From a virus (Duplodnaviria; Caudoviricetes), in the IMG/VR virus record IMGVR_UViG_2882828558_000007, positions 1 to 64,000 of that record: a stretch of 64,000 bases of DNA. The stretch is one strand, 5' to 3'. Below the pieces are notes generated by a model. The model had not been told where the DNA came from, did no database searches, and was given only the letters and a program-made list of their open reading frames with translations. Each line of letters begins with the position of its first letter. Position 1 is the first letter of the stretch. Both the position numbers and the translations under genes were made by a program. This document shows positions 12,283 to 60,115 of the stretch, piece by piece.

Positions 12283-12353
12283 GTATGCCTCCTCTGTTGG
12301 TGGTAGGAACCGCTTGGTTGGCGGCGCATGGCGTTGGTAGCGCCAATTTGTTC

Positions 12354-12383
12354 ACCTTAGTTCTTTTTTACAAATTTGTCAAG
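12354..12383 (-). promoter_or_regulatory. Sigma70 promoter with ACAAATTTGT operator (copy 1)
   Basis: TTGACA-17-TAAGGT; palindrome at 12370-12379. Confidence 0.75.
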
Positions 12384-33539: not shown

Positions 33540-34891
<1,352 letters not shown>

Positions 34892-34916
34892 TGTTAACTC
34901 CTCATCTAGCGGCAAC

Positions 34917-34944
34917 AAAAAGCCCGCCAGAAGAACTAGCGGGC
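34917..34944 (-). terminator. Terminator between the accessory helicase and the mini-ATPase
   Basis: GCCCGCTAG/CTGGCGGGC stem plus TTTTT. Confidence 0.6.
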
Positions 34945-34970
34945 CTTGTCTTGGCGCCGGTGATTTTGGG

Positions 34971-36995
34971 TTAGGCCGCCTTGGTGCTGGCCGTGTTGTC
35001 GTTGGCCGAGGGCCATGCCTCTGGCGGGATGACGATGTCGGGGCGGTTGTCTCGGACCCATTCGAGGGCTTCGCGGATGGGGATAAGCTTTCCGTGGGTC
35101 GGGACACCCTGGCGACGCAACGTCTTCACGATTTTTATATTTCTACCGATCCGCCGAGCAAAACTGCTAGCGTTGTCCACCCCCAGCGTGCAGCGCTTCG
35201 CGCTATTGAATAAGATCAGTTGCTCAAAATCGACGTTACGAGACACCCACTCTCTGCCGGCAGCAACAGGAACGAGCAATCCATCGTGGGGCAGACCGCG
35301 CTTTACCCATGACGAGGCTGTTGTCTCTGCGACATCAAATAAGCGAGCAAAAGAGGCAATAGTGACGGCAGAGTTGTTGTCCTTAAGTGGCAACGTATCA
35401 TGTCTCTCATAGGCGCTTACGTTGTCCTCTACCCACTTGATCGCGTCCGGCCACTTTACCAGATCCCCGACCGTGGGTAGGCCACGGGCTATCCATGCCG
35501 AAACTTTACGCCGAGGTACGTTTAGGCGTTTTGCGGCAATGTCCAATCGAATGACCGAATTGTTTCGTGCATCATTTCTGCGCTGTCGATCCTTGAGGTG
35601 ACCAAGATCAACGTTGGCCTCTACCCATGTGTTCGCATCGTCGATGGGAACCACGGCAGCGCGCAAAGGCATCCCCATCCCCACCCACTTCTGTAAGGTC
35701 GGATGAGACACTCCCCAACGCCTAGCAAATGCCTTCCGTGTCTCACACCCCTCCGGCACCTCGCCCCGGATCTCCCGTAAGGCGCCATCAAATTCGCCGA
35801 TCTCCCTGCCCATGGGAAACTCAAACCCGCAAGCGCAGACAGGCTCTCGCTCGGCGCGGACCTCCTTGCACTCTGGGCACTTCCGTGGACCGCGCTCTAG
35901 CGCCTTACGCCGCTCCTTAGCCGCGCCACCGTCTAGGCTCCATGCCCAATTGTCAGCGAACCAGCCGTGTTCGTGGTAGAGACCCGCGTGGTCGAATATC
36001 ATTGCACAGTCTTTGCCCTCGGCGATTCGCAGCACGCGACCAATCATCTGAAGCAGCAGCCGAACAGACCGCGTCGGACGCATCAAGATGACGGCATCAA
36101 TAGCCGGGATGTCGAAGCCTTCCGTAAAGACCTCCACGTTGCTCAACACGCAGATCTCTCCAGAAGCCAAGTCGGCCACAGCGGCGTCGCGCTCGTCATC
36201 GGGCGTGTTCGCATCGACATGTGCCGCCGCAATGCCCTCCTCGCGAAACTTCTCCACCAGCGCCCTGCTCGCGTCTACAGATACAGCAAAGACCAGCGCC
36301 CGCTTGCCCGGAATGCTCTTCTTGTATTCCGACACAGCGTCACCGATCAGAACGGGCGTGTTCATGACCTTCTCGATATCGTCCTTGCGATAGTCGCCCG
36401 CCTGCATGCGTGCGGCAGACAGGTCCGGCTCGGAAGGCGCGAAATAGCGGAACCCTGAAAGCCACCCCTCGTCGACCAGTTCTTTAATGGAGGGACCGAC
36501 GATCATCTCGTCGAACAATTCCCTCAGCCCTGCCCCATCTTGCCGCTCCGGTGTAGCGGTCAGTCCAACATGCTTCGCAGCCTGCGTCTTGTCGCGGATG
36601 TCGCGCCATGAAGCGGCCGGAGTGTGATGGCATTCATCCCAGATGACTAGCGAGGGAGCAGGCAACTTTCCGATCCGCCGGCAAATTGAGCCGACAGACG
36701 CGATTTGCACGCGCTTCTCAGGCTGAAACTCGTACCTCTTGCCGGTTTCTGTATCTTTCGCTGGCGAAATAACCCCGAAATCAATGCCAGCCTCACGAAA
36801 TGCCTTGGCGGTCTGCCTGATAATTTCTTTGCGATGGCACAGAAACCACACGACGCCCTCGTGTCCGGCGACGATCTCCATGGCGGTTTTCGTCTTTCCG
36901 GCGCCAGTCGGCATTTGCAGAACCGCGCTGCCGCTCCGCTCAAGAGCAGCGAGCGTTTTCTCGACGGATTTCGCCTGATATTTTCTCAATGTCAT
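34971..36995 (-). CDS. SF2 DEAD/DEAH helicase with Zn ribbon and four C-terminal Nu1-like HTH repeats
   Basis: PTGAGKT, DECHH, TATP, QMIGRVLR, CPEC...CACG; four FARR..V...W...G(M/L)P...W repeats; start moved to MTLRKYQ. Confidence 0.85.
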   Translation of the reverse strand: MTLRKYQAKSVEKTLAALERSGSAVLQMPTGAGKTKTAMEIVAGHEGVVWFLCHRKEIIRQTAKAFREAGIDFGVISPAKDTETGKRYEFQPEKRVQIASVGSICRRIGKLPAPSLVIWDECHHTPAASWRDIRDKTQAAKHVGLTATPERQDGAGLRELFDEMIVGPSIKELVDEGWLSGFRYFAPSEPDLSAARMQAGDYRKDDIEKVMNTPVLIGDAVSEYKKSIPGKRALVFAVSVDASRALVEKFREEGIAAAHVDANTPDDERDAAVADLASGEICVLSNVEVFTEGFDIPAIDAVILMRPTRSVRLLLQMIGRVLRIAEGKDCAMIFDHAGLYHEHGWFADNWAWSLDGGAAKERRKALERGPRKCPECKEVRAEREPVCACGFEFPMGREIGEFDGALREIRGEVPEGCETRKAFARRWGVSHPTLQKWVGMGMPLRAAVVPIDDANTWVEANVDLGHLKDRQRRNDARNNSVIRLDIAAKRLNVPRRKVSAWIARGLPTVGDLVKWPDAIKWVEDNVSAYERHDTLPLKDNNSAVTIASFARLFDVAETTASSWVKRGLPHDGLLVPVAAGREWVSRNVDFEQLILFNSAKRCTLGVDNASSFARRIGRNIKIVKTLRRQGVPTHGKLIPIREALEWVRDNRPDIVIPPEAWPSANDNTASTKAA

Positions 36996-37032
36996 TGTGT
37001 CTCCTCTGGCGCGGTAGTGGTTTGGTGTGCCA

Positions 37033-37062
37033 AAGGTAGTCAATATTTACAAATTTGTCAAG
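37033..37062 (-). promoter_or_regulatory. Sigma70 promoter with ACAAATTTGT operator (copy 2)
   Basis: TTGACA-17-TACCTT; palindrome at 37049-37058. Confidence 0.75.
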
Positions 37063-37447
37063 CCTCATTCAGATTCAGGACCAGCCTTGTATGGCTCCGG
37101 TCGTCGACGTCAGCCACCTCAAACCAGGGCTCGCCCCATCGTGACAGGGCCTTCACCTTGTCGCCCTGCTTAGGTTGCGGCCCAGTGTAGGTCGTTCGAT
37201 CGATATGCAACTGCGCCTTATCGGCAACGATCCGAGAGCGCCAACCAGAATCCCGGCTGCCCGCTACACTGGTCGTCTTCCCCTCGCCGACCCGCAGGAC
37301 CGCCTCAATCTCGACCGCCGGCCGCGTCGGATCGACGACGCCACTCTTTAAGAACGACAAGCGTACCGGCTCCGCGAACTTATCGTCCACGGCAGCCAGC
37401 ACTTTGTCGCGCAGTTCGTGAAAACGGGCAGAAACTGGCATAATCAA
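37058..37447 (-). CDS. Head-tail joining/closure protein (putative)
   Basis: Position after the capsid gene; PKQGDKV...WFEV pattern. Confidence 0.6.
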   Translation of the reverse strand: MIMPVSARFHELRDKVLAAVDDKFAEPVRLSFLKSGVVDPTRPAVEIEAVLRVGEGKTTSVAGSRDSGWRSRIVADKAQLHIDRTTYTGPQPKQGDKVKALSRWGEPWFEVADVDDRSHTRLVLNLNEA

Positions 37448-40271: not shown

Positions 40272-41892
40272 TCACGTCCTCCGCACCTTGCGCTATCCGC
40301 CCAGTTGACGGCATTGCCGCACCCAACGGGCCGCCACCGCCAACACTCCGCCCATAGGGGATCGGAATCCCCTTTTCGTTCATGTCGGTGATCTCTGCGG
40401 CTATTTTCTCTCGCGTCACGGCAGCGTCGCGACCCATAAGTGCCGCTTCGTCTTCCGTCGATGACAAGCCAAGCTCAATCCGCTTGGCCGAAGCCATGGT
40501 CGCCTTGTAGTCATCCGCCACGGGCTGGGCTGGGCCAGGCCACTCGGCATTGCAGACAAGCTCACGGTTGGCCGCGAATGCCGCGTATCCACCCTTGAAC
40601 GGTATCTGATCCATGCCGATCTTCTCGTCGAGCCAAGACTCGTAAATCGCCTGGCAGAACGGAGCAGCCACACGCTCACGACGACGCGTCACGATCGGCC
40701 ATACCGACGACATCGCCATGCGCACCGACGAGTAGTTCGCGTTGGAATGATCCATCGCGAAAGCCTCAAAGGTGATGCCAAGCCGACGGGCCATCTCTCG
40801 CTGAAGGTTCTGCGAGAACGGTATGTATTGAGAGCCCGGCGTTGCCGCCGTATGCATGTGGAATTCTTCGCCCGGACCGAGGTGGTTGATCCGCCCGTGG
40901 TCCGACATTGAGATGCCGTTTTCCTTCAGCGCGTCGATTCGGTTGCCCCAGACATCCAAAAGGTCCGCAGCGAGATCCGGGTCGTCATCCTCAAGCGTCC
41001 TGATCGCCTCGAAAGCGGTCTCGGAAGGCTCCGGCGACTTGATCGTGGCGGCAAACGCCGTCTGCAGCAGGGCTGTTGTAAGGGTCGCGTCGGCCAACTG
41101 GTCGTACTGCGCAGCAACTTTCAGGATCGGCGCAAGGACAGAGATGCCGCGAACGCTGTCGGGATTCTCCCCGCGGTCCATAACGTGGATCACCCGCCGC
41201 AGCGGGCCGTTCCACGCGGGCACGTCGAAGTCAAAATCCTGCCCGTTCTCGCGTCCGATCAACCTGAACTTGGTTGGCGACCCGCGTTCTGGGTCAAGAA
41301 AGATGCCCTGATCAAGACCGATGAATTCATTTGTCTCGCGTTTCAGGCGATGAGGCGCCACCAGCGACACTTTCGTGCCCGTTTTAATGCCATGCCGCCT
41401 GCGCATGGCTCTTGGCATGAAGTCAATTAGACCGATGGCCTCGCCGCTAGCGAGATAATACCTGATAACTCCATCAAGATGCTCGGCGAGCGTCGTCGTG
41501 CCGTTGAGGCTGTATTCCTGCGGTCGCCAGACGTGCAGATACCACTCATCCTCGACCAGCCTCGACCACGCTGTGATTTCAGCCGGCGTCCAGCCAAGTT
41601 TTGCCAACTTCGGCCTTGCCGACAGCTTAAGTTCATCACCAATCGTGTCGGTGATGATCTGGTCGACCGCACCAGCGATCCATCCGCTATTGTGGATGAA
41701 ATCCCAGGCTAGCGCTGAAGCACGCTCGGCCGACTCTCGAACGCTAACCGCGCCATCACGAGTGACGGCGCGGCGCATTGTCAGAATGCCGGAACTATTG
41801 TCGCGCAGGTACTGCGCTCGGACGCGCTTAACCGCGGGAGCGGCCACCTTGACGCCGGGGGCTTTCACCCGGATCTTTGGCTTGTCGCTCAT
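40261..41892 (-). CDS. Portal protein (lambda family)
   Basis: RGISVLAPIL, LLQTAFAATIK, DHSNANYSSVR. Confidence 0.9.
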   Translation of the reverse strand: MSDKPKIRVKAPGVKVAAPAVKRVRAQYLRDNSSGILTMRRAVTRDGAVSVRESAERASALAWDFIHNSGWIAGAVDQIITDTIGDELKLSARPKLAKLGWTPAEITAWSRLVEDEWYLHVWRPQEYSLNGTTTLAEHLDGVIRYYLASGEAIGLIDFMPRAMRRRHGIKTGTKVSLVAPHRLKRETNEFIGLDQGIFLDPERGSPTKFRLIGRENGQDFDFDVPAWNGPLRRVIHVMDRGENPDSVRGISVLAPILKVAAQYDQLADATLTTALLQTAFAATIKSPEPSETAFEAIRTLEDDDPDLAADLLDVWGNRIDALKENGISMSDHGRINHLGPGEEFHMHTAATPGSQYIPFSQNLQREMARRLGITFEAFAMDHSNANYSSVRMAMSSVWPIVTRRRERVAAPFCQAIYESWLDEKIGMDQIPFKGGYAAFAANRELVCNAEWPGPAQPVADDYKATMASAKRIELGLSSTEDEAALMGRDAAVTREKIAAEITDMNEKGIPIPYGRSVGGGGPLGAAMPSTGRIAQGAEDVNAD

Positions 41893-43862
41893 CGATAGGC
41901 CCCCCATCGCTCCCGCTTACGGCGAGGTGTCCGCTCCTTCGGCTTCCCGTCTCCGGGCACCTCCGTCGCGTTCTCCTGGCTTGGCGAATTGTCGTTCGCT
42001 GGCTTTTCTTCGGCCTTGCGGGATTGTCTGCGCGGCGTTTTATCAAGTTTGTTCGGTAGAGACATTCGTGCCGCCAGTGCCAGTACCAAGCAGTCCCACG
42101 CCTCATTTCGGGCGCCGGCCGTCTTGGTTTCCCATTTTCGCGTCGTTCTCCCGCCCACCGTCTTGGTGACCGCGTGCTCTGACGTCAGCTGCGTGAAGTA
42201 ATCGGAGCTCAGCCCCACGGCCGGGAAGTGAATAGCCCGGGGCGTTGGATCGTCCTCGTTCGGAACGATTGCAAGACGAGACGAGATATCGTCTTTCGCC
42301 GTATCGACGCCGATGATGTACGGCTTGTCGCCGCTATTCTTCGTCCGGCTGGCCGTCTTTGGCCAAATCATGCGCGGAGCCTTTGGATCGCGATTTCCGC
42401 GACCGATGCACGCATATATTCGGCGACGCTTACGGTCTCGAGCGAACTTGTAGACCATCTCCGATCGGTGGCCCGCGCTATCGATGCAGGCGGCTTGCGC
42501 GAAGAGTTTGCGCCCGTCGTCGGTCTCGCACGGCTCTCGGATCAGTCTGTCGAACTCGTCCCATATGGCCAGCTTCGACGTGTCACCGTTGATCACCTCG
42601 TGGCGAGCGACCCAGCTTTCTCCGTTGGCGCCCCAGGCAACAAACGTTGCCTCAATGCGATCATCCTGAGTGTCCGCCCCGACCGTAACCATAATGGCCC
42701 CGTCAGGTAGCGTCTCCCAGTTGTACGGCTCGCATCGGCTTCTCAGGACGTCTGGATCGGCAACATTCACGACTTCCTTGTGCGGCAAGCCGAGCACGAG
42801 GTTGACGAACGTCTTCTTCCTCAGAGGGTCCTTGTAAGCCGCCAACCACTCGACGGCCAACGCTGCCCATGACGCATTTGGGAACAGGCTGTAGGCTGCC
42901 CAAATATGGAAGCCGGCATGTCCGACGGACGGCTTGTCAGCAATCCACTCCCCGCCGTTGATCATGGCGAGTTTGTCGTGCTCCTCAATGCGGCAACCGT
43001 TCGCTTCGCAGCGGAAGTGTGCCGTTTCCGTCAGGTGGTTGCCGCCCTCATCCTTATCCCACTTGAAGTTTTCCCACTTCAGGCGCTGCTTCGTCCCGCA
43101 ATGCGGGCATGGGACGTGGTAATGGCGCTGGTCGCTTTCCTCAAACGACTTCTCGATGCGGCTGATACCCTGCACCGTTGGCGTGCTGCCAAGGATAATC
43201 TTGCGATTCCAGAACGTTTCTGTTCGCTTGGTGCCGAGCGAAATCTGATCGCCCTCATCGCCCGCGCCGTTGGCTGGATAGCCGTCGACCTCGTCAAACG
43301 CGACGATGCGGACCGTAATACGACGAAAACCGGCCGGGCTGTTCGCCCCAACGAAGGATACCGACGCGCCGTTGCGAAAGATGCGCTTGTCGACCTTCTG
43401 GTTCGCCGCCTTCGAGTTCAGATCGCCTGCGATTTCAGCCAGGACCGGCGTATCGCGCAGCATCGGCGCAATTTCCGTCTGGCTATAATCTCGAGCGTCG
43501 CTTTCCTTAGGCTGCACAATCAGGATAGGCGCTGGGTCCTGGTGGATGTAATATCCGACCATGTGATCCAGCATCTTTGTATAGCCCACTCGCGCGCTCT
43601 TCATGACCGTGATCTGACGAACAGTCGGATCGGTCACAGCGTCGAGCATTCCGTCCTGGTAACGGAAGGACTTGAATTTGCCAGTGTCTGCGCTGGTTTC
43701 GCGAGACAGGAATGCGTATGTGTTGGCCCACTGGCTGAGCGTGAGCTTGGGTGGCGGCTTTAGCGCTTCGCTACGGGCTCGGCGCAACCTCGTCAGCAGA
43801 CGGGCCGAACCTGTGCTGTAGCGACTTGCGGAGTTCTCCGAAGTCTCTTTGCCCATCATCAA
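41889..43862 (-). CDS. Terminase large subunit (GpA family)
   Basis: KSARVGYT, FDEVDGY, GSTPT, CPHC, DTQDDR, DSAG, NEAWDC. Confidence 0.95.
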   Translation of the reverse strand: MMMGKETSENSASRYSTGSARLLTRLRRARSEALKPPPKLTLSQWANTYAFLSRETSADTGKFKSFRYQDGMLDAVTDPTVRQITVMKSARVGYTKMLDHMVGYYIHQDPAPILIVQPKESDARDYSQTEIAPMLRDTPVLAEIAGDLNSKAANQKVDKRIFRNGASVSFVGANSPAGFRRITVRIVAFDEVDGYPANGAGDEGDQISLGTKRTETFWNRKIILGSTPTVQGISRIEKSFEESDQRHYHVPCPHCGTKQRLKWENFKWDKDEGGNHLTETAHFRCEANGCRIEEHDKLAMINGGEWIADKPSVGHAGFHIWAAYSLFPNASWAALAVEWLAAYKDPLRKKTFVNLVLGLPHKEVVNVADPDVLRSRCEPYNWETLPDGAIMVTVGADTQDDRIEATFVAWGANGESWVARHEVINGDTSKLAIWDEFDRLIREPCETDDGRKLFAQAACIDSAGHRSEMVYKFARDRKRRRIYACIGRGNRDPKAPRMIWPKTASRTKNSGDKPYIIGVDTAKDDISSRLAIVPNEDDPTPRAIHFPAVGLSSDYFTQLTSEHAVTKTVGGRTTRKWETKTAGARNEAWDCLVLALAARMSLPNKLDKTPRRQSRKAEEKPANDNSPSQENATEVPGDGKPKERTPRRKRERWGAYR

Positions 43863-44388
43863 TCGCCAACTCGTTCAATGCGGCAATCACTTCCTCGTCG
43901 ATGATGGCCTTAATCTCTTCGGCCGACTTCAAAACGGCAGCCGAAGGCGCCACTTTAGAGCCGATACCCAGAAGCCTGTTCCTAACAACTGCGTATTCGC
44001 TGGCCACCGCCACGATTACGTCCTCGATTTCCACGACTGCGCCGCTTTCGCGCTCGAATTCGAGCTGGCGAAGAAGGGCAGCGTAGTTTTCTTTAATGCG
44101 CTCGGCCTCAGCCTTCGACCACTTTGCGCCGCCCGGTGCGGACACCAGTTCTTCGGCGGCGGCTTCAAGGCTTGTAGTGTCCGCGACTACGTCCGCGCCC
44201 CGATCCGTTGCGGACACAGGATGCTCCCCGCCCCGCCAATCCAGATCCAGATACCGAGGATCGATTGTGCCGTCGGCCAAAAGCTTGATATGCTCGGACT
44301 TCACCTTCCTGCGGACGACCTTGTCATCGCAGCCGGCGCGGCGGGCAAACTCCCGAATTGAAATCCCAAGAGCCATGCCCGCGGACAC
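43771..44388 (-). CDS. Terminase small subunit
   Basis: SIREFARRAG HTH; coiled coil; overlaps TerL. Confidence 0.8.
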   Translation of the reverse strand: MSAGMALGISIREFARRAGCDDKVVRRKVKSEHIKLLADGTIDPRYLDLDWRGGEHPVSATDRGADVVADTTSLEAAAEELVSAPGGAKWSKAEAERIKENYAALLRQLEFERESGAVVEIEDVIVAVASEYAVVRNRLLGIGSKVAPSAAVLKSAEEIKAIIDEEVIAALNELAIDDGQRDFGELRKSLQHRFGPSADEVAPSP

Positions 44389-44497: not shown

Positions 44498-45274
44498 CTA
44501 GCCTGCGCGTACGAACTTGGATGGGTCGTTGTCATTTGATGGCTGCGGAGCGATCACTTCGACCACGCGCCATCCGCCACGCACTGTGCCCATCCTAAGC
44601 TTGGCCAAGTTGCTGGAGTTTCCGCTGGTCAGTCTGCCGGATTTAACCATGTAACTCTGGCGCGCAGTTATCCTCTCGCCAGAATTCACATTCTCATAGA
44701 CGCGCTCAACCCAGTCTCGAACCGGAACTTTTTTACTGTTAGCGTTCCTCGAGCATTTGGCCGACTGCCGCGCCTCAAACTCCCGCCTGGTCATCTTCGT
44801 TAACGACCAGCCGCCAGTCACACGGGACGCATCCCGCACGATGTAGTTAACGCGATCACGATTGATGCCGGAGTAATCAGAGAACTCAAAGCGAGTGCCA
44901 GCGAACAGGTCGCCATCAATGTGGTGGAACTCGTAGATGGTTAAGTCGACGTTCGTCGCGCCCCACCCCTTATTGGACGCAGCCCACTTCCTGCGCGCCA
45001 GCCCGTAACTCTTCCGTGCGCGGTTCAATTCGTATCGCGGGCACTTACTCATCATAATGAGCGCCGCCCATGCATCTCGCCCACCGTGAATATGGGCGAG
45101 CAGCAAATGCGCAAAGTAGTGATCCTCTGGCGTCAAACGAATGAGGTTGTGGTGGTTATCTCCGCCACCCATCCAGCGAGGCACGATGTGATGCATCTCG
45201 GTCACATCTGTGTCGTCGGGAGGGTTCTCGCGACGATCCTTAAGGAAATCTAGATAAACCCTACGGTACTCCAT
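44498..45274 (-). CDS. HNH homing-type endonuclease
   Basis: EMHHIVPRWMGGGDNHHNLIRLTPEDHYFAHLLL. Confidence 0.85.
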   Translation of the reverse strand: MEYRRVYLDFLKDRRENPPDDTDVTEMHHIVPRWMGGGDNHHNLIRLTPEDHYFAHLLLAHIHGGRDAWAALIMMSKCPRYELNRARKSYGLARRKWAASNKGWGATNVDLTIYEFHHIDGDLFAGTRFEFSDYSGINRDRVNYIVRDASRVTGGWSLTKMTRREFEARQSAKCSRNANSKKVPVRDWVERVYENVNSGERITARQSYMVKSGRLTSGNSSNLAKLRMGTVRGGWRVVEVIAPQPSNDNDPSKFVRAG

Positions 45275-46746: not shown

Positions 46747-47673
46747 TTATGCCGCTCGCAATTTTCTTCCTTGGTCGATCGAAACGAGGATTTCAGCCAG
46801 CTCGACCAGTGCGGCCTTGCCCGCCTCAAGTGCTTCCGACTCCTTGAAGCCCAGTCGCAAACCGATCGACTTCAAGTTCCCGCGCGCCGCCACTTCGTCG
46901 ATGATCCCGGCCGCATCACTGCCGCGCTCTTCCGGCGCTTCCCACATGACAGCACCGCTTGACGAATTGCCTGTCGGGCTGCACACGCCGCCCATGAACG
47001 ACGCGCCCTCTGCTACGGCATCAGGACCGAGCCGTGCCGCATGCGGCAGCTGCCCTGCCGGGACGCCGCCATCCACGCCGTGGGCCTGCAGCTCCTTCCT
47101 GGCTGCCTCAACACCCGGCAGCGGGTCATACATCGGCGCGAGCGCCGGAAGGCCTGAGAAGTCACGATGGCAGTGCGCTGCGTGCATCGGCGATGGCGTT
47201 GTGGCCTTCGTCGCAAGGTAGAGCCAAGGCGTGCGTTCCTTGCTGGTCTTCTTCTCGGTGCTGCGCGCCCTATCCGTCGGTTTGAGCTTCTTGCCCTTCT
47301 TCGTGACACCCCACTCTGTAAGCCTGCCGTGCAGGAACTTCAGGCTGCCGATCTCGGTGCGGCCCTTGCTCGTGTGGGCCACAGGAAGCACGTTGCCTTC
47401 CTTGTCATGCGACGCTGCCATGATCTCGCCGATGGTCGGGCGGATTTCCTGCCTCGTCGGCTCGACATCGACGAACCAGTTCGCTGCAGGTCGAGGAAGG
47501 GCGGCGGCGAGCGCCGGAGCGAGTTCAGGGTGGTTGTCGTACAGCCAGCGAAGAGCGGGCAGCGTCCCGCGGTATCTCGGGTTCTGTGGCTTGTTGTCGT
47601 TCGCGGCTTTGAGCGGCTTCGGCGGGGCGTTGATGGCAGCGTGTAGCTGCTCGGCCAATGAACCTCTTCTCAT
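46747..47673 (-). CDS. Putative late transcriptional regulator (308 aa)
   Basis: Start moved to MRRGSLAEQL (GAGGAG RBS); last gene before the late leader; C-terminal HTH-like NLKSIGLRLG. Confidence 0.55.
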   Translation of the reverse strand: MRRGSLAEQLHAAINAPPKPLKAANDNKPQNPRYRGTLPALRWLYDNHPELAPALAAALPRPAANWFVDVEPTRQEIRPTIGEIMAASHDKEGNVLPVAHTSKGRTEIGSLKFLHGRLTEWGVTKKGKKLKPTDRARSTEKKTSKERTPWLYLATKATTPSPMHAAHCHRDFSGLPALAPMYDPLPGVEAARKELQAHGVDGGVPAGQLPHAARLGPDAVAEGASFMGGVCSPTGNSSSGAVMWEAPEERGSDAAGIIDEVAARGNLKSIGLRLGFKESEALEAGKAALVELAEILVSIDQGRKLRAA

Positions 47674-47712: not shown

Positions 47713-47742
47713 AATATAGTCCAAATTTACAAATTTGTCAAG
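47713..47742 (-). promoter_or_regulatory. Sigma70 promoter with ACAAATTTGT operator (copy 3)
   Basis: TTGACA-17-TATATT; palindrome at 47729-47738. Confidence 0.8.
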
Positions 47743-49860: not shown

Positions 49861-52134
49861 TCAGGCGGCCTCAGCCGGCCGGACGAACTTTATCTTACGG
49901 TCAAAATGCTTCGGGTCCGGCTCGTCAACGACGGCAAGTATGCCACTCGATATCCATGCGTCGAGAATGGCCTTGACCTTGCGCTTGTCCGCGGTCATGG
50001 CCTTTGCTGTTTCCACATGCATGCCCAACGCTGACGCGAGGACGTACCCGGCCCAGTCTTCAGACTGAGACGACTCGCGGTAATTCTGGTTGGCGAATCG
50101 CACCAGGACTTCCTTGCGCACGTCCGGAGGGACGGCCTCGGCGATCTCCTCCTTGGACGGCCATTTCCACTCAGTCACCACAGGGGCGAAGTCCTGAGGC
50201 TTCGTGAGACCTCGACCATTGCCCAGTGGAACGCCTACGAGGTGACGCCAATCCAGCTTACTGCTTAGTGGGGTTAGGTTCGACTTGCCATAGGTCACGG
50301 AGAAGTACCCGAACCTGTCAGCGCCGTCGACGCCGGCCTCGTTTGCTTGCTCCGGTGACATGCGGTTCAGGACGCGAACCGATCGAGCCGCGCCGATGAG
50401 GGAAACCGCACCTCGAGCGTCTTCGACGGTAGCCTCCCGGTCGGCGACCTTGCGCAGATGGTGGACGATGTCGATCGCGCAGTTCGTGTAGTCAGCGATT
50501 TGCGCCCACAGCTTGGCCACCTTATCGATTGCCCCGTTGTCGTTCTCATTGACGCTGTGCGTCGACACGAACGGGTCCACGATCATCACGTCTATCTTGT
50601 TCCGCTCTATCTGTTCGACCACAGCCTCCACGATAGGTTGCTGGATGCGCACGCCTGCCTTCTTGTCGTCAACAGCGACGACCAGCTCCTGCTCGCGCCC
50701 GCTATCGAGAAACAGGTGCCCCTCGATGTCTTCCGGCTTTAGCTTGTAGTGGATGGCGGCAGCCATGATGCGCCGCTCCATCTCGTCGCGAGGATCTTCC
50801 GCATTAAACACCCACACACGCAGGCGCTCCGCAGGCTTGGTGCCGAGCAAAGTCTTGCCCGACGTCATCGCAAGAGCTTCCGCAAGGCTAAGGCTGGTCT
50901 TCCCCAAGCCGCCGGGGCTGACTGTTACGGACACGTATTTACGGATCAGGTGATTTCCATAGGCGAACTCTCGACGGGCAATGGACTTCGGGTCGATCCA
51001 CTTGAATGCGGTAGCAGTCAGCGGACTATTGTCGTTCGCCGGCTCCTCGTGCGCCGTATCGGTGATCCCGGTCGGGATATCTTCAGTCTCCGGGGCGTCT
51101 GGCTTGGCGCTTTCATCCCGTTCGGGATCATTCTCACCTTCAACGGCGACATCGTACCGCTCGGGAAGCCCCGTCTTTACACGTGCCTTGCGTAGCCCGT
51201 TGGCGACCATGCGCTGCACGTCGACAAGGCGCGTGTTGTCCTGGTGAAAATCCTGCTCCGGCGGATGACGCGGCTGGAGCGCGCCGGCCTTCAGGCCATT
51301 TTCGATGGTTTTGCAGCAGCGAGACCAATCCCTGCCCCATCCACGCGCTACGTCCTGTAGTTGAGCACGCGCTTCCGATTCGGACAGGTGGCCACCGCCA
51401 ACCCACTGCCCGAGCGAGAACGCCGCGTCATTGAGTGCGTTGTTCCGGTTTCCCATCGGCTCTGATGCAAGGTCAGATAGCTCTCTCTCGATCGCCGCGT
51501 CGACATAGACAACATTCGTGGAACTCGCGGCATAGTGCGTGTGGGACGGCGCGGATTTCGGCAATAGCAGGTCGAGCAGCCAGGCCGGGGCGTCGGCGAT
51601 CTCGCGCGTGTCGTCCGCCCACTTGTAGTGTCGTCCATTGGACAGGACGCTGCCCGCCGCAACGACGTAGCCGCCTTCCGACCGGATATCCACGCCAGCA
51701 CCGAGTGCGCCGCGGTTGCGTGTGCCGGCCACGTATTTGAAATAGATGTGCAGGCCGCCATTCGGGCTAATGACGCGCGCCGTCACAGGGAGGGGGCCGT
51801 GCTCCGCCTCCATGTCCGAAAGCCAGGCGAAACCGTTGGCTCCGCCTGGCTTGTTGTCGATGTCTAGCGCGAAGAAACCAGTCGGCGACCCCGTAGGGAG
51901 GCCGATGGCCGCGTCTGGCCAGTCGCTCCACCACCTGTCGATGATGTGCTGGAACTTCGTCGCCTGCTTGAAGCCATGAATCGTGAGAGGTGTTTTCTCG
52001 CCTAGGGTCGTTACTTCGCCTGTATGTCGATCGACAACATCTTCTGCCTCTGAGCGGCAGGGGAATACCGGCCATCCCTGGGAGACGTAGGCATTGGCAA
52101 GTTGATGGGGCGTGGGTTGTGTGGTTTCGGTCAT
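49861..52134 (-). CDS. Bifunctional primase/polymerase fused to a RepA-like (AAA_25) helicase
   Basis: GWPVFPC, IGLPTG...LDID, SPNGGLHIYF, GVDIRSEGGYVV; SPGGLGKTS, IVDPF, HH.RK; start moved to MTETTQP. Confidence 0.9.
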   Translation of the reverse strand: MTETTQPTPHQLANAYVSQGWPVFPCRSEAEDVVDRHTGEVTTLGEKTPLTIHGFKQATKFQHIIDRWWSDWPDAAIGLPTGSPTGFFALDIDNKPGGANGFAWLSDMEAEHGPLPVTARVISPNGGLHIYFKYVAGTRNRGALGAGVDIRSEGGYVVAAGSVLSNGRHYKWADDTREIADAPAWLLDLLLPKSAPSHTHYAASSTNVVYVDAAIERELSDLASEPMGNRNNALNDAAFSLGQWVGGGHLSESEARAQLQDVARGWGRDWSRCCKTIENGLKAGALQPRHPPEQDFHQDNTRLVDVQRMVANGLRKARVKTGLPERYDVAVEGENDPERDESAKPDAPETEDIPTGITDTAHEEPANDNSPLTATAFKWIDPKSIARREFAYGNHLIRKYVSVTVSPGGLGKTSLSLAEALAMTSGKTLLGTKPAERLRVWVFNAEDPRDEMERRIMAAAIHYKLKPEDIEGHLFLDSGREQELVVAVDDKKAGVRIQQPIVEAVVEQIERNKIDVMIVDPFVSTHSVNENDNGAIDKVAKLWAQIADYTNCAIDIVHHLRKVADREATVEDARGAVSLIGAARSVRVLNRMSPEQANEAGVDGADRFGYFSVTYGKSNLTPLSSKLDWRHLVGVPLGNGRGLTKPQDFAPVVTEWKWPSKEEIAEAVPPDVRKEVLVRFANQNYRESSQSEDWAGYVLASALGMHVETAKAMTADKRKVKAILDAWISSGILAVVDEPDPKHFDRKIKFVRPAEAA

Positions 52135-52164
52135 GCTGCTTCCTTGAATTCTGAAAAATACCGC

Positions 52165-52193
52165 TTGATGGATAGGGCCATTGGTCCTAATGT
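52165..52193 (+). promoter_or_regulatory. Sigma70 promoter for the plus-strand small-gene cassette
   Basis: TTGATG-17-TAATGT; AGAGGAG RBS before 52224. Confidence 0.6.
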
Positions 52194-52223
52194 GCTCATA
52201 CCAACACCGCAGAGGAGACAAAC

Positions 52224-52685: not shown

Positions 52686-52876
52686 CCTCCGCCGAACTGG
52701 AATCCCGGTGCGCAGCATTGTTCGGCGCCAATTGGCAGACGGCATTCGCGCGCCACAGTGGTGTGGACGCGCGAACCGTTCGACGTTGGAAGGCTGGCGA
52801 CCGTGAAATCCCGCCATGGGTGAATGCGTTGCTTCACGCATGGGAGACCTTGCGCGAGATGGGGGCGGATTGGTAG
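52682..52876 (+). CDS. Small HTH protein
   Basis: WQTAFARHSGVDARTVRRWKAGDREIP. Confidence 0.75.
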   Translation: MTSAELESRCAALFGANWQTAFARHSGVDARTVRRWKAGDREIPPWVNALLHAWETLREMGADW

Positions 52877-53547
52877 TTGTCGTTGGCCGCCTCTGGAACC
52901 TTCGCCGTCCTCGCTATCGAGATAAGCATCTCACGGAAGGGAACCGGCGTATGGATTCGCGGTGTGCTGTTCTGCCCCCCGCCTTTCGCCCCAACCTCAC
53001 CGAGGCGCTTGGCGCGCTTCAGCCCCATTCTGGCGATCACTTCCGGATCAAGACGTGGTTCGCCGATGCCCCAGTCGAGATCAGGTAGCTCTACCCTGTA
53101 CGCGACCAGCAGCGTGGGCTTACGGGCATAGTGCCCATATCGCCCCTGCTCGACGCAACACGTCCAGCCACCATGGAAGTCTGCGGAAATCCACCCGCCC
53201 TCTCGTGGCGGTTTGTTCAAGCCGAAGTGCGCCCACGCATGACTGCCCCACGGATGCTCTATGACGCCGCCCCATTTTCGCGCCGCGGCCAGAGCGGCTG
53301 CAAAGCACCCACCATCGTCGCCTTTCACTTTCCGTATGCCAGTCTGCTTGATGAACAGCGGCTGTCCAGCCCACAGCTTGCCCCATCTCTGGCACGGCGG
53401 ATGGGCAACGACCGGGTGCGGGCCGTCATAGAGCCGCGCGTCGCGAACCTCGTCCCATGGGTCGACGCCGGGCAAGCCGTAGTAGGCGCCATTGGTTTCG
53501 ACATAGAGGGCGGCGACGGGACGAACGTTATCATTATCGTGCTTCAT
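52834..53547 (-). CDS. C5-cytosine methyltransferase-like protein (PPCQ motif, atypical)
   Basis: DARLYDGPHPVVAHPPCQRW; GGVIEHP; no clear FxGxG motif I. Confidence 0.55.
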   Translation of the reverse strand: MKHDNDNVRPVAALYVETNGAYYGLPGVDPWDEVRDARLYDGPHPVVAHPPCQRWGKLWAGQPLFIKQTGIRKVKGDDGGCFAAALAAARKWGGVIEHPWGSHAWAHFGLNKPPREGGWISADFHGGWTCCVEQGRYGHYARKPTLLVAYRVELPDLDWGIGEPRLDPEVIARMGLKRAKRLGEVGAKGGGQNSTPRIHTPVPFREMLISIARTAKVPEAANDNYQSAPISRKVSHA

Positions 53548-53750
53548 TGCGCCCCTTTCAGATCGCCGCGCACGACGATCGATGTCTTGGTACGATATGC
53601 GTAGAACGGCGTCTTCTTGCCGCGCAGGTCGAGGAACGCTACGCCGGCAGCGAAGCCTCTACGCTCGGGGTAGTCAGCCTGAAACTGCAAAGCGACGGAC
53701 AGTGCGTCGCCCCAGTTCTCCGGCTTGGTGTTGGTTATTTTCAGGTCCAT
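53544..53750 (-). CDS. Hypothetical protein
   Basis: Start moved to MDLKITN. Confidence 0.5.
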   Translation of the reverse strand: MDLKITNTKPENWGDALSVALQFQADYPERRGFAAGVAFLDLRGKKTPFYAYRTKTSIVVRGDLKGAQ

Positions 53751-54133
53751 CAAAAAGGCGCCTCTTCTCGCAGCAAACGCCGCAACGTGTCCCCGAACGC
53801 CATGACGATCCGCTTGCACAGCATCTTGGCGTCGAGCTCGTCGAAGTGGTTCAGGTCGGAAATCCCGCGCTCGTCGATGATCGCCCCGAGCTCTTCCAGG
53901 CAGCCGTCAAGGGCCTTGAGTTCGTACACGTCAAACCGCCGCATATCGCGGACGGTCTCGATCAGGGCGCTGCATTCAAGGCAGAGATAACCGGGGTCCT
54001 TGTCGGTTCGGGACGTGAAGCCAACACCGACGCCGAACGACCGCATGCTGCAGACTCGGCAGACGGTCGGGTTGCCATGCTCGTCGGCCGTGGGCGTTAT
54101 GGGCAGGATGTCTTTGCCTGGGAGCCGGGTCAT
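53750..54133 (-). CDS. Zn-binding hypothetical protein
   Basis: CRVC...CLEC; ends EEAPF. Confidence 0.6.
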   Translation of the reverse strand: MTRLPGKDILPITPTADEHGNPTVCRVCSMRSFGVGVGFTSRTDKDPGYLCLECSALIETVRDMRRFDVYELKALDGCLEELGAIIDERGISDLNHFDELDAKMLCKRIVMAFGDTLRRLLREEAPF

Positions 54134-54981
54134 GCTGCCACCGCGGAGAAGAGGTCGGCTTGCCGTGCCCGATTGTCGTTCGCTGGCGCAACGGTTATTG
54201 CTGGCGCAATAACTTCTGGCGCCGGCATTGCCACGTCACCCTCTTGCGCGAAGTCGACGCAGACGATCTCGCACATCGGCGAGACTCCCTTCCAATCGTT
54301 GATGTAGAAAGCCGTATCGATGCCGCAACCAGCGTCAAAGTGAATGCCGGTAAATTCCTGGAACTTGACCGCCTTGCCGTCCTTCTGTCGCTCGTAGCAC
54401 GGGCGTCCACTGTAGTTAAAACCGGCCGACATCTGAGGGACGATGAACGCCCCGCTGCCAGCAAGGTGGGCCGCGATATCGATAACGTGGAACTCGAAGT
54501 CCTTTCCGCTATAACGCGGACTATTGCGCTCGCGCTTGATGGCACCGAACGGTGGATTGCTGATCGCCACGTCGAACCGGCCAAGCTCCATGTCGAGCAC
54601 GTCCAGTACGTCGGCCAGAACCCACTCCGCCTCGGGCAGGATTTTCTGCCCGACTGCAAGATAGTCAGGATTGCGCTCCACGCAGGTGATGCGCGCCTTC
54701 TGGTGGCTTCTGTGCCAGCATGCATAAGACAGCATGCCTATGCCAGCGCACAGGTCGATGATGCGGCCGCTGTAACCGCCTTGTCCTATGGCGTCGATTG
54801 TGAAGTCGAAGGCCATGTCGTAAGGCGTGAAGAACGCTCCTGCCGCACCGTTGACGTGGTTGGCGCCCTCGTTCCAGTTCCGAAGAACAAACTCTTTTTC
54901 GTCTTCGGTGAGTACGGGCTTTGTTAAGAGGTCGCACGCCTGCGCATGCGCCTTGGCTTGCGCCTTGGTGAGTTTGGCCAT
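54130..54981 (-). CDS. N6-adenine DNA methyltransferase-like
   Basis: GAFFTP, DLCAGIG, ISNPPF. Confidence 0.85.
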   Translation of the reverse strand: MAKLTKAQAKAHAQACDLLTKPVLTEDEKEFVLRNWNEGANHVNGAAGAFFTPYDMAFDFTIDAIGQGGYSGRIIDLCAGIGMLSYACWHRSHQKARITCVERNPDYLAVGQKILPEAEWVLADVLDVLDMELGRFDVAISNPPFGAIKRERNSPRYSGKDFEFHVIDIAAHLAGSGAFIVPQMSAGFNYSGRPCYERQKDGKAVKFQEFTGIHFDAGCGIDTAFYINDWKGVSPMCEIVCVDFAQEGDVAMPAPEVIAPAITVAPANDNRARQADLFSAVAA

Positions 54982-55559
54982 TATGCTGCCTCCTGCAGGG
55001 AGGGGATGTTATCATTCGCAGCAACCAGCGGCGAAAACCTCCCAACCTCATTCCCCCACGCTGACCACCCGGCCCACGCCTGCCGAGCAAACAGCTCGAG
55101 GTAAGGCCCGGCGACCAACTGCTCGACGCGGCCATAGACTTCGTCCGGCTTCCGGCTGTGTTCACGCCGCGGTGCGCGGATGACGGAGCGGACACCACGC
55201 GAAAGGCGGCGGGGCTTTCCGCGCTTGAACAGGTGGCAGATCTCGACTTCCTGACGGGTCCAGTAACCCATTCCCATACGGCCCTTGTCCCATATGAAGG
55301 CTACGGAGACGGGCTTGAACCCCCAGGCAGCCGCCACGTCGAAGGCTTCACGCTGCAGGTGGCTGACCGTCCACATGAACAGCAGGCAATCCTTGGCTGC
55401 GACTTCCGCGACGGGAAGCGCCGCGATATCGGCGAGCGACATCACGGCATAGGGCTGCTCACCTCGAGCGGGGGCTAGTTGCTGATTGGAGTAACTTCTG
55501 AACGACCACGGCGGGTCGGCCAAAATTGCGCCGTAGCGCCCTTCTGGTAGCGGCTGCAT
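54981..55559 (-). CDS. MT-A70 family adenine methyltransferase
   Basis: ILADPPW, LLFMW, HSRKP, YLELFAR, WGNE. Confidence 0.9.
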   Translation of the reverse strand: MQPLPEGRYGAILADPPWSFRSYSNQQLAPARGEQPYAVMSLADIAALPVAEVAAKDCLLFMWTVSHLQREAFDVAAAWGFKPVSVAFIWDKGRMGMGYWTRQEVEICHLFKRGKPRRLSRGVRSVIRAPRREHSRKPDEVYGRVEQLVAGPYLELFARQAWAGWSAWGNEVGRFSPLVAANDNIPSLQEAA

Positions 55560-55668
55560 GGTATCTCCTCTTATGTGGTATGCCCGCCCGTTGGTAGCGT
55601 GCGGTTTAGGTGGCTGTATTGACAGAAAAGTGCACGGCCTGTCGGGCAGTGCGATATGACTGATAATG

Positions 55669-55866
55669 CTAGTTGGCCCGACGTATGTTGCTGGCTGCTA
55701 GACGCAGGCCAGCGGCACTCGCGCCGTGGTGGATCGCTGCTTGTGCGGCCTTGGCTCGGACTTCGGCGTCTATGCGTGGCTCGTCCTTGGAGATCGCCAG
55801 ACACGCCGCAGCCTGCTTGTCATGCCATGCGGCGGCGAGGTTGTAGGCGGTGGCGAGGTCAGTCAT
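55669..55866 (-). CDS. Hypothetical protein
   Basis: Start moved to MTDLATA. Confidence 0.5.
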   Translation of the reverse strand: MTDLATAYNLAAAWHDKQAAACLAISKDEPRIDAEVRAKAAQAAIHHGASAAGLRLAASNIRRAN

Positions 55867-58177: not shown

Positions 58178-58207
58178 AACTTAACCGCAATTTACAAATT
58201 TGTCAAG
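58178..58207 (-). promoter_or_regulatory. Sigma70 promoter with ACAAATTTGT operator (copy 4)
   Basis: TTGACA-17-TAAGTT; palindrome at 58194-58203. Confidence 0.75.
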
Positions 58208-58226: not shown

Positions 58227-59963
58227 CTAAAACGGAATGTCATCTGCCATCGCCACCGCCAGCCGGCGCGTAGGCACATTGTTGTTGCTCGGGGCGGGTA
58301 CGTTGTCATTCGCAACAGCAGCAACGGTGTGCCCGACAACGTCCCACCACTTCCCGCGTGGTTTGACGAGGATCTCGGCGGTATCACGAAGCTCTCCCTG
58401 TCGCTCCAGCCACTCCATCACCGTCTTTGGGAACGGCCTTGAGCCACCATGGGCGAGCCAGAAACGATCGGCTCTGCTCTTGGGGAACCCGTTATGCTGG
58501 GGGCATAACCATTCGTTCACGTGGTTCATTCCGACCTGGTACGACACCTTCACCGAAGGCGTCTCGCCCTTCTCATGGAACCAGAACTTGCGCGAACGTA
58601 CCTTCCGGGATTCGGGCTCTGCAACAGTGGCCAGGATCGCGACATCGGTCGGCTTGGCGGTGAACTTAGGCTTTTCCTCGAACTCGAATTGATAGCCACA
58701 GTTCGGACAGACCCGCGCACCAGCGGCGACGATCTCCTCACACTGCATACAAACCTTGATTGGTGCCTCTCCCGTCCCCTTGCCTGGCTTTTTCGGCGTA
58801 ACGCAGTCCACGGGCCCGTGTCGTTCGATATTGCCGGCAAAGTTCATATACCGGCAGTTTGGCTTCGGACCCATCGCTATGGCAGCCTTTCGCCCTTCGG
58901 CGTCAGACGTTTCGGGGTCGAACCCCGCAGGCCAGACGACCCGCGTTCCACGTCCGGCGCGTTGAACATAGCGGTTGGCGCTTTCCGTAGGAGCCAGGTC
59001 TGGAATCAGGTCAACGCCCGGAATGTTCGTACCTGTGCTGAGGACGTTGTCGTTGGTGCACCCCCACAAACGGCCGGCCTTCAGGTCGGCGATGATCTTG
59101 CGCCGCTCACCTTTCGGTGTCTTTCCGCTTAGCACCTCGCAAGTTTTGCCGTATTTGCGGATCTCGTCACGAACGTGGGTAGCGTGATCGATGCCGTTAC
59201 AGAAGATGATGGCCGTCTTTCTGTTTTCTGCATTGGCATAGGCCATGATTTCCGCGACGGCGGCGCGGGTTAGTTCCTCCTTGTCCGTAGCCTTGGCGAG
59301 GTCTGACTTCTTGAAGTCTCCCCCCAGCCGATGGACACCCGTCATATCGTACTGGAGCTCAGTCGGCTTGCTGGTCAGGCGCGTCAGGTAGCCATCGTCG
59401 ATCGCCTGCGCGATGCTGTAGGTGTAGACGACCTTGTCGAACAGTCGGTCTTCGCCCTCATCGAGGCGGCCAGAATCAAGGCGGTACGGCGTTGCCGTAA
59501 AGCCAACAATCTTCATGTCCGGATTGATTTCGAACAGCGCCGCGATAAGCTTTCGGTACATCGTGTTGCCGTCGTTCGGCACGAGATGCACCTCGTCGAT
59601 CTTCAGCACGTCGACATGGCCGATCAGGTCGGCCTTGTCCCATATGGTTTGCAGCTGACCGAAGACAACCTGTGCCCGATAGTCCCGCCGGTTAAGGCTG
59701 GCGGCAGCTATCCCGGCTGGAGCAAATGGGCACATGCCCACAAACTCCATGAAGTTTCCCTCGACGAGCTCTTCGACGTGCGTGGCGTTGAGAATGCGGA
59801 TGTCTGGCCACCCCTCAACGAGACGCTTATCTAGCATGGCCATAGTGCCGCTCTTCCCGGTGCCCGTGGCCATATCAACGAGCGGGTGTCCGGGTTCTTC
59901 GGCCCAGTAGTCGAAGACCGCATCGACGGCCTCGATCTGATAGTAGCGCGGATTGAACGCCAT
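58227..59963 (-). CDS. SF2 DEAD/DEAH helicase (replication module)
   Basis: ATGTGKS, DEVH, TATP, VQRAGRGTR, CMQC...CPNC; C-terminal DDIPF. Confidence 0.9.
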   Translation of the reverse strand: MAFNPRYYQIEAVDAVFDYWAEEPGHPLVDMATGTGKSGTMAMLDKRLVEGWPDIRILNATHVEELVEGNFMEFVGMCPFAPAGIAAASLNRRDYRAQVVFGQLQTIWDKADLIGHVDVLKIDEVHLVPNDGNTMYRKLIAALFEINPDMKIVGFTATPYRLDSGRLDEGEDRLFDKVVYTYSIAQAIDDGYLTRLTSKPTELQYDMTGVHRLGGDFKKSDLAKATDKEELTRAAVAEIMAYANAENRKTAIIFCNGIDHATHVRDEIRKYGKTCEVLSGKTPKGERRKIIADLKAGRLWGCTNDNVLSTGTNIPGVDLIPDLAPTESANRYVQRAGRGTRVVWPAGFDPETSDAEGRKAAIAMGPKPNCRYMNFAGNIERHGPVDCVTPKKPGKGTGEAPIKVCMQCEEIVAAGARVCPNCGYQFEFEEKPKFTAKPTDVAILATVAEPESRKVRSRKFWFHEKGETPSVKVSYQVGMNHVNEWLCPQHNGFPKSRADRFWLAHGGSRPFPKTVMEWLERQGELRDTAEILVKPRGKWWDVVGHTVAAVANDNVPAPSNNNVPTRRLAVAMADDIPF

Positions 59964-60115
59964 CACGCCACCTCAGCCGTCTTGCCTTTCCCACGCCCCT
60001 CCTCCCGCGCAAACGCCTGCGCCAGCCGGATGGCGTCTTCGCGCACGACGATCCAGCCGGCGTTTCGCAACGCCGCCAGCTGCTCGGGACCTATGATATC
60101 GCGCGGATGGATCAT
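59963..60115 (-). CDS. Small hypothetical protein (50 aa)
   Basis: MIHPRDIIGPEQLAALRNAGW...; coupled at both ends. Confidence 0.5.
   Translation of the reverse strand: MIHPRDIIGPEQLAALRNAGWIVVREDAIRLAQAFAREEGRGKGKTAEVA

Follow-up and report, generated by a model that had tools for sequence, protein, structure and literature searches.

Helicases fused to DNA-binding domains are common. E. coli RadD (YejH; 6JDE, 7R7J), a recombination/repair-type motor, combines a pair of RecA-like domains with a cysteine zinc element and a variable C-terminal region; it has two zinc fingers, and its first zinc-binding element includes Cys384 and Cys387 (PMC9049331). Lambda gpNu1 and other small terminase subunits (TerS) of cos phages (1J9I, 7LW0, 7LWR, 7LXS; phrog_57) carry a winged helix-turn-helix (wHTH) DNA-binding domain together with regions for oligomerization and for binding of the large terminase subunit (TerL). 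A TerS-type helix-turn-helix (HTH) is also used outside the terminase, in phage-versus-element conflict, by RppC of the E. coli phage-inducible chromosomal islands (6HLK, 6HN7), a small dimer that binds TerS. Here we describe a gene in which both kinds of domain are joined in one polypeptide. It lies at 34971-36995 (minus strand) of a 64,000-nucleotide stretch of a rhizobial prophage from an alphaproteobacterial temperate phage lineage (Caudoviricetes; positions 1 to 64,000 of IMG/VR record IMGVR_UViG_2882828558_000007), which was analyzed as a whole and is referred to as the window. The product of this fusion gene, P0002, comprises a superfamily 2 (SF2) motor, a four-cysteine zinc ribbon, four wHTH repeats of ~48 residues and a tail resembling the peptide tag of transfer-messenger RNA (tmRNA). 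No description of a helicase fused to a TerS-type wHTH array was found in the literature searched. The reading that we favor, at about even chances, is that the protein is a site-anchored accessory phage DNA motor that carries its own address and a proteolytic timer.

The fusion gene lies within an open reading frame (ORF) at 34971..37043 (minus strand). Translation most probably begins at the ATG at 36995, because a GAGGAG Shine-Dalgarno sequence (37001..37006, minus strand) is positioned 5 nt ahead of it, the database call P0002 (674 residues plus stop) begins there, and the alternative TTG at 37043 falls inside the promoter. The motor (residues 1-345; 35961..36995, minus strand) has two RecA-like domains and matches Pfam ResIII (4e-24), Helicase_C (4e-16) and phrog_16 (1e-93). 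In an alignment of 15 homologues, motif I, GxGKT (G31/G33/K34/T35), is nearly invariant, whereas motif II, the DExH variant DECH (D120-E121-C122-H124), and Q316..G319-R320, which includes the motif VI arginine, are invariant. The closest relative of solved structure is E. coli RadD (6JDE, 2.7e-28), followed by a type IV restriction helicase and XPB. RadD is likewise the best NCBIfam model (NF053632, 5.9e-41, profile positions 1-360 of 573), but the score of 140.4 bits is far from the curated equivalog cut-off of 720 bits. As judged from these matches, the motor is RadD-like, i.e. of the recombination/repair type, and not a RadD orthologue.

The zinc ribbon (Cys373, 376, 387 and 389; 35820..35888, minus strand) has the pattern CxxC-x10-CxC, which is invariant in the same 15 homologues, and occupies the position of the first zinc-binding element of RadD. 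The order of domains is thus far shared with RadD. In contrast to RadD, however, there is a single ribbon after the second RecA-like domain, and the RadD C-terminal domain, with its binding of the tail of the protein that binds single-stranded DNA (SSB), has no counterpart: the alignment stops at the motor, and the wHTH array stands in its place. The original prediction of a DEAH helicase with a zinc ribbon and four repeats is borne out, in that the ORF is real and ResIII and Helicase_C, the DECH motif, the invariant ribbon and four repeats supported by a hidden Markov model (HMM) are all present. The further claim that this helicase is additional to the replication helicase at 58227 stands only in part. 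There is indeed a second paralogue (58227-59966, minus strand), but it is itself RadD-like (192 bits against the 720-bit cut-off), and the replicative helicase is more likely to be part of the primase-helicase at 49861-52221. The second paralogue ends in ...MADDIPF, imitating the C-terminal tip of SSB, the tip to which bacterial RadD binds.

The repeat array fills the C-terminal 260 residues. An HMM seeded with the four copies of the window protein and iterated over 21 family proteins converged on 91 significant copies, two to six per protein, with E values of 1e-13 to 1e-21 for the four copies in the window (all coordinates minus strand). Repeat 1 (residues 414-461; 35613..35756) scores 5.5e-21 and also matches phrog_57 at 9.6e-15. 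Repeat 2 (residues ~473-525; 35421..35579; 2.6e-13) has the same strand-helix-helix-strand-helix topology as repeat 1 in the full-length model, a topology modeled also for repeat 3 (residues ~538-587; 35235..35384; 4.2e-17), and repeat 4 (residues ~602-650; 35046..35192; 8.1e-17) occupies the best-conserved repeat position in the family. The AlphaFold2 (AF2) model of repeat 1, made from an alignment of 24 repeats (pLDDT 96.3), adopts a strand-helix-turn-helix-wing-helix fold, for which Foldseek gave 7LW0, 7LWR, 7LXS and 1J9I as top matches (TM 0.72-0.74, probability 0.99-1.00), with 6HN7_B at TM 0.75 and with Xis, RacA, RdfS and BldC next. In a profile search of all PDB sequences with the 24 repeats, the leading matches were RppC and five DNA-binding domains of TerS (6HLK, 7LW0, 7LWR, 1J9I, 7LXS and 6HN7_B), followed by P2 Cox. 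The E values, from 0.009 for the RppC match to 0.1, are marginal, which a domain of 50 residues would lead one to expect; the order of the matches is nevertheless consistent.

Searching 1.84 billion representative proteins with the repeat profile gave 937 matches, including ~40 helicase-length proteins with 3-9 copies and many proteins of 150-200 residues with one N-terminal copy. P0017 (918 residues, nine copies), the one helicase-length match tested, carries ResIII and Helicase_C, and the single-copy relatives tested (9/9) all match phrog_57 as small terminase subunits of full length (E 1e-17 to 1e-33). Single repeats searched against Pfam gave sub-threshold HTH families and no Phage_Nu1 match; the TerS assignment rests on the profile, PHROGs and fold, not on Pfam. 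Taken by profile and modeled fold, the repeats are closest to the wHTH DNA-binding domain of cos-phage TerS/lambda Nu1, in agreement, at the level of the domain, with the Nu1-like character proposed for them, and the structural comparison with Nu1 that the proposal called for gives a wHTH for repeat 1 with 1J9I among its nearest structures. Tandem MerR/HTH_17-type wHTH arrays (up to ~16 copies) without a helicase were also seen in P0036 (1015 residues), P0063, P0074 and further ESM Atlas rows, and poly-wHTH arrays appear to be a wider, undescribed architecture; the ESM Atlas feature search yielded no usable match.

Likeness to TerS does not extend beyond this domain. The phrog_57 match covers positions 14-73 of 199, corresponding to the DNA-binding domain, and the oligomerization and TerL-binding regions are absent. 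The module is present in four tandem copies, the gene is not adjacent to that of TerL (41889-43862), and the phage encodes a separate TerS (43771-44388). The fusion protein is not a terminase subunit. RppC resembles it as a non-terminase use of the TerS-type HTH, but the fusion protein carries several copies of the module, joined to an ATPase. It has to be considered whether the fusion protein is a packaging factor, its TerS-type modules binding the cos site of the phage itself, of a satellite or of a rival, while the motor clears branched DNA or proteins ahead of terminase or the protein competes with TerS in the way that Rpp proteins redirect packaging. The closeness of the repeats to TerS and RppC would fit such a role, as would the location of the gene within the morphogenesis block and the weak match of the adjoining 179-residue ORF (ORF179) to the gpA terminase ATPase, which at 25.3 bits stays below the cut-off of 25.6. 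We nevertheless regard it as very unlikely, given that the missing TerS regions are those for oligomerization and TerL binding, that none of the repeats bears a special resemblance to the N-terminus of the phage's own TerS (best E 0.12), that homologues in other phages lie far from terminase genes, and that the related phages Aurantimonas phage AmM-1 and Paracoccus phage Pyei1 package without a fusion gene. The phage's own TerS was also considered as the source of the repeats and was rejected on the same comparison.

Because the repeats are of the Nu1/TerS wHTH type, it is reasonable to infer a motor directed to its site by DNA-binding modules with sequence specificity. The repeats are ~30% identical in pairwise comparisons, both inside one protein and between proteins, yet fold-defining residues are kept in every one. 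Four such divergent repeats would therefore read a composite site rather than identical cos-like repeats, and the proposal that the protein reads an array of cos-like or otherwise repeated sites loses ground, also with respect to the dissimilarity from the DNA-binding domain of the phage's own TerS. In the full-length model (15 sequences; pLDDT 66.9, pTM 0.38), the layout is one of independently folded wHTH modules strung on flexible linkers. A covalent string of this kind would resemble the DNA-bound filaments of Xis, RdfS and BldC, which share the MerR-like wHTH fold class. In those cases small individual proteins assemble on direct repeats, whereas the modules of the fusion protein are covalently joined and mutually divergent.

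Comparison of family members indicates, at the sequence level, that the repeat array is a cassette exchanged whole. P0014 and P0015 match the window protein at 96-97% identity over the motor and 80-89% over the tail, yet their arrays are only 26-30% identical to its own. Conversely, P0008 and P0011 are ~60% identical in the motor, whereas their arrays differ at 1 of ~290 residues, with breakpoints of identity at the conserved VPEGCET and GIPIQA flanks. Between proteins, first repeats are 35%, last repeats 42% and middle repeats 29% identical. A shared pool of repeat types from which arrays are drawn was considered and rejected: all repeats are ~30% identical, except in the whole arrays of P0008 and P0011. 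Target-recognition domains of type I restriction HsdS subunits are likewise swapped. By analogy, both systems would exchange the specificity part as a block between conserved flanks on a conserved enzymatic scaffold; unlike HsdS, the fusion protein has an unrelated type of domain and no methylase or nuclease partner.

Array exchange invites a more far-reaching reading, in which each module would read its own short sub-site, and the lineage would swap arrays to re-address one RadD-like motor as a weapon or tool against rival-phage, satellite or host loci, timing its DNA-metabolism enzymes by tag imitation through an SspB-binding ANDN and a C-terminal AA. We hold this fully modular version to be unlikely. 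A passenger without a specific address, whose wHTH string attaches to proteins, or to DNA without specificity, and whose gene is a selfish or near-neutral insertion, is the least probable of the readings considered. No target was found, homing-type HNH genes accompany the fusion gene at two loci, and tandem HTH_17 arrays occur in many uncharacterized proteins, all of which a passenger would accommodate. The ATPase motifs, zinc ribbon and tail, however, are invariant across proteins that are 50-97% identical, the repeats keep their fold-defining residues at ~30% identity, and the gene is wired to a phage-native promoter (see below).

The C-terminal tail (RPDIVIPPEAWP...; 34974..35045, minus strand) follows the array, and hardly any variation is seen across the fusion family in the last ~35 residues. 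Its final 11 residues, ANDNTASTKAA (34974-35006), have in common with the host tmRNA tag, ANDNYAEARLAA, its opening ANDN and its terminal AA-COOH. In the full-length model, the preceding RPDIVIPPEA segment is predicted to be ordered (pLDDT ~83) and the final 11 residues to be disordered (pLDDT <50). An ssrA-like degron would be expected to present an exposed AA-COOH terminus and the adaptor-side ANDN of the host tag; both are present, and the host encodes the adaptor SspB. The permuted tmRNA gene of the host and sspB, ~140 bp downstream of it, place tag and adaptor side by side (G000 C13:242077-243042; L002, L052). Alphaproteobacterial SspB reportedly recognizes the ANDN side of the tag.

The likeness of tail and tag is at the peptide level, because only the four ANDN codons match the ssrA gene (11/12 nt) and synonymous sites are not unusually conserved. 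Two DNA-level explanations were rejected on these grounds: a fragment of the ssrA gene or attachment-site relic, there being also no tmRNA-like RNA in the window, and a constraint on the tail DNA itself (synonymous conservation in 11/17 codons, no higher than the 9/12 in helicase motif V). NDN is 13-fold over-represented in the ORFs of the window, with 8/14 occurrences in the last 40 residues (P = 3e-4), and 8/9 C-terminal ANDN motifs in long ORFs of the 5.4-Mb genome lie inside the prophage. Their carriers include methyltransferases, exonucleases, both RadD-like paralogues and TerL, among others; besides the fusion gene, the ORFs are those at 7543-8811, 41889-43874, 52834-53658, 54130-55008, 54981-55697, 58227-59972 and 63536-64000 (all minus strand). 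In the prophage and related phages, ANDN is positioned 10-36 residues from the C-terminus, and several of the proteins end in AA (ANDN-x11-VAA, ANDN-x6-EAA).

Related phage loci have ANDN-x5-9-AA tails on unrelated proteins, and ANDN tails are carried by unrelated DNA-metabolism proteins at L001, L003/L004, L043 and L044. No ANDN-x5-9-AA tail was found in the four loci with repeat-less helicases only, nor in L006 and L007, the most divergent fusion loci. The pattern looks like a lineage-wide imitation of the host tmRNA tag. The closest precedent is in mycobacteriophages with integration-dependent immunity, where encoded ssrA-like tags direct phage repressor and integrase (Rep and Int) to host proteolysis and destabilize them (PMC9262239). 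There, in contrast, the imitation is confined to the --LAA end and to two lysogeny proteins, whereas here ANDN is copied too, on many DNA-metabolism proteins of one lineage. Nothing specific on phage ANDN tails was found in the literature searched.

The sequence elements of a transcription unit surround the fusion gene. The promoter (37034..37062, minus strand; -35 CTTGAC at 37062-37057, 17-nt spacer, -10 CTACCT at 37039-37034) begins directly after the stop codon of the upstream gene, and a perfect palindrome, ACAAATTTGT (37049-37058), a candidate operator, overlaps the -35 element and the spacer. An intrinsic terminator (34914..34947, minus strand) consists of a 12-bp GC-rich stem, a 5-nt loop and a U-run, and the fold of 34900-34975 has an energy of -31.7 kcal/mol (z -3.56), equaled by none of 200 shuffles. 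An operator-bearing promoter and a terminator of its own, as originally proposed, are therefore present as sequence elements, although a generic consensus scan (including sigma-70) reported neither.

Within the window, the palindrome ACAAATTTGT is found in four exact copies and one with a single mismatch, against 0.84 expected, and none of 100 shuffles reached five. The four exact copies belong to a conserved module, CTTGACAAATTTGTAAA with a -10-like hexamer at 17-nt spacing (CTTGACAAATTTGTAAA-N6-(C/T)TAnnn), at 12354-12383, 37034-37062, 47713-47742 and 58178-58207, all on the minus strand; the copy with the perfect -10 has CTATAT at 47729. Three of the four (37062, 47742 and 58207) are followed after ~30-45 nt by the ribosome-binding element GAGGAGAC. 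Apart from the fusion gene, the modules head a leftward unit (which runs in the direction of an exonuclease, a dNMP kinase and the integrase), a gene for a 308-residue protein, and the unit of exonuclease, methyltransferases and primase; genes of replication or recombination are present in two of these three units. From this distribution, the modules probably define an early-type regulon with a palindromic operator, in which the fusion gene would be co-regulated with early genes. The 308-residue protein (46747-47673, minus strand), which follows the promoter copy with the perfect -10, matches nothing in PHROGs or NCBIfam and carries ANDN close to the N-terminus; its gene lies shortly upstream of the late leader and tRNA-Met, and the protein could be a late regulator.

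The fusion gene and ORF179 form a 2.7-kb insertion, because homologues of the flanking genes adjoin each other in two related phages. In the window, 2.73 kb separate the upstream flank (37058..37447, minus strand; a 129-residue head-module gene, phrog_25398) from the downstream flank (33540..34328, minus strand; a 262-residue gene, phrog_12983, that precedes the baseplate genes), whereas their homologues are 10 bp apart in AmM-1 and 3 bp apart in Pyei1. The gene is thus inserted between head and tail genes, as had been surmised. It was also said to be more AT-rich than its neighbors, which is correct in direction, the cassette having 57.6% GC against 62.3% and 60.6% in the flanks and the helicase a GC3 of 0.66 against 0.80 in the capsid gene, but the difference is modest. 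Flank adjacency in relatives, a promoter and terminator of its own, and deviant composition are features of morons or accessory insertions; the promoter, however, is phage-native.

The second gene of the cassette, ORF179 (34352..34891, minus strand), encodes a twin-arginine-like leader (MNRRTFL...) and Walker A/B motifs of cytoplasmic type. Among 5.8 billion proteins it has a single homologue cluster, P0166 (96% identical), and no homologue was found in viral contigs. The longest contigs of P0166 and of the helicase P0014 are equally long (73,421), so that the two are probably on one contig, which suggests that this pair of genes occurs as a cassette elsewhere too, with another array in place. 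In locus L003, the ORF after the helicase (12015-12308, plus strand) starts MNRRKFL..., like ORF179, and is otherwise unrelated to it. A 17-nt inverted repeat (34292-34308 and 34973-34989, 88% complementary) brackets ORF179 and the terminator, its arms lying in the first codons of the 262-residue gene and the last codons of the helicase gene, and may be due to chance; the search for iterons or insertion scars in or next to the cassette gave nothing convincing. Elsewhere in the window, a homing-endonuclease-like gene (44498-45274, minus strand; phrog_655) is directly upstream of the small terminase gene.

Being an accessory insertion at the kind of position taken by morons, of lower GC content and equipped with a promoter and a terminator, the cassette could also encode anti-phage defense or superinfection exclusion expressed by the lysogen. 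The array would then recognize sites of foreign phages, e.g. of cosB type, the motor would block their replication or packaging, and the hypervariability of the cassette-like specificity part would reflect an arms race. The rarity of the fusion agrees with this explanation, the full fusion having been found, among 300 scored genomes of the host's family, in the window's genome and in none of the 299 others searched. Defense is, in our view, unlikely, although the most credible of the alternatives to a site-anchored accessory motor. Expression from a silent prophage is weakened as an idea because the promoter is one of four near-identical, phage-native copies; the others head replication/methylase and leftward units, which suggests repression in the lysogen. 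In PADLOC-DB 2.0, the motor has only generic SF2 similarity (type IV restriction endonuclease, PbeA and type I R subunits), the fusion gene is part of no defense system, and its neighbors have no system matches; no partner effector or nuclease domain accompanies it. In other phages, moreover, the gene is located in early-operon regions beside int, SSB or HNH genes. The prophage-encoded defense put forward in the original prediction is weakened accordingly by the shared promoter and the lack of system membership.

Among phage records, a full-length homologue (53% identity) was seen in Rhizobium phage RHph_X2_25 alone, where the fusion gene is between the C repressor and integrase genes, with an HNH gene next. 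Integrase is directly upstream of the fusion helicase in L003. In L006, an SSB gene upstream overlaps its start and integrase is ~1.2 kb downstream, and L043 has an integrase-like ORF (not scanned) ~4 kb away and an apparent HNH gene downstream. Taken over the loci, integrase is adjacent or within ~1.2 kb in L001, L003 and L006, and an HNH gene is downstream in L001 and probably in L043. No neighboring gene is common to the window and the other fusion loci. Two fusion helicases ~67 kb apart, L004 and L005, are found on contig PCCY01000018.1 of a Roseobacter metagenome-assembled genome (MAG) and are identical over the C-terminal part compared; the copy of L003, in an Ahrensia MAG, differs from them by one residue in that part. 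The pattern could stem from a repeat, from a pair of prophages, or from an artifact of binning or assembly.

The frequent adjacency of integrase, and SSB in L006, raise the question of whether the fusion protein is an initiator or directionality factor specific for the origin (ori) or attachment site (att). The array would be placed at ori or att arm sites (cf. lambda O, P4 alpha, or a covalent Xis filament), the motor would open or remodel the DNA, and instability would limit firing, as for lambda O. The fold class is common to Xis, RdfS and BldC, which bind DNA in head-to-tail arrays, and the specificity modules of initiators are, as here, mosaic between related phages. On the other hand, the phage has a complete replication module, the integrase of the window is ~32 kb away, and the gene is dispensable in related phages, as its flanks are adjacent in AmM-1 and Pyei1. 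A search in and around the gene gave no iteron-like repeats, and the single-copy profile relatives of the repeats are TerS, not Xis. We consider an ori or att factor improbable, more so than defense or the fully modular use of arrays.

The site-anchored motor that we favor would work as follows. Produced early after induction, once its operator is freed, the fusion protein would bind one composite DNA site through the wHTH string and so tether the motor there. The tethered motor may spend ATP on remodeling nearby DNA in a RadD-like manner, by branch migration, assistance to strand exchange, or protein removal, and the protein would then be quickly removed through SspB and ClpXP. A change of array would re-address the same motor to another site, on the DNA of the phage itself or of a rival element. 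The company kept by the gene in relatives, with SSB (L006), integrase (L001, L003 and L006), an integrase-like ORF (L043) and HNH genes, supports a place in DNA metabolism. Several points weigh against this reading. DNA binding by the array is deduced from homology, and no DNA target was found for it. The motor's output is uncertain because RadD shows no stand-alone helicase activity in vitro (PMC8887467). Early timing depends on the palindrome being a repressor operator, and no repressor was identified within the window, in which no homologue of the RHph_X2_25 C repressor or XRE protein was found. The degron is a predicted one, with an end of KAA instead of the canonical LAA, and ANDN tails could be a docking motif for another hub, e.g. 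a phage beta-clamp. The full-length model is of low confidence.

What is new here is the RadD-like identity of the motor, the exchangeable array, the tag-imitating tail, and the four-copy phage promoter with its palindromic candidate operator. The unusual feature is a motor covalently joined to a string of TerS-type wHTH modules that is traded as a whole array among genes nearly identical in other respects. Should DNA binding by the modules be additive, nature would here have a means of redirecting a DNA motor to new addresses and, outside packaging, a new function for the Nu1-type domain. In addition, a set of DNA-metabolism proteins in this alphaproteobacterial temperate phage lineage ends in what appears to be an imitation of the tmRNA tag that includes the adaptor-side ANDN. 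As such tails are near-exclusive to the prophage within the host genome, a phage-wide timing of early functions by SspB and ClpXP is directly testable.

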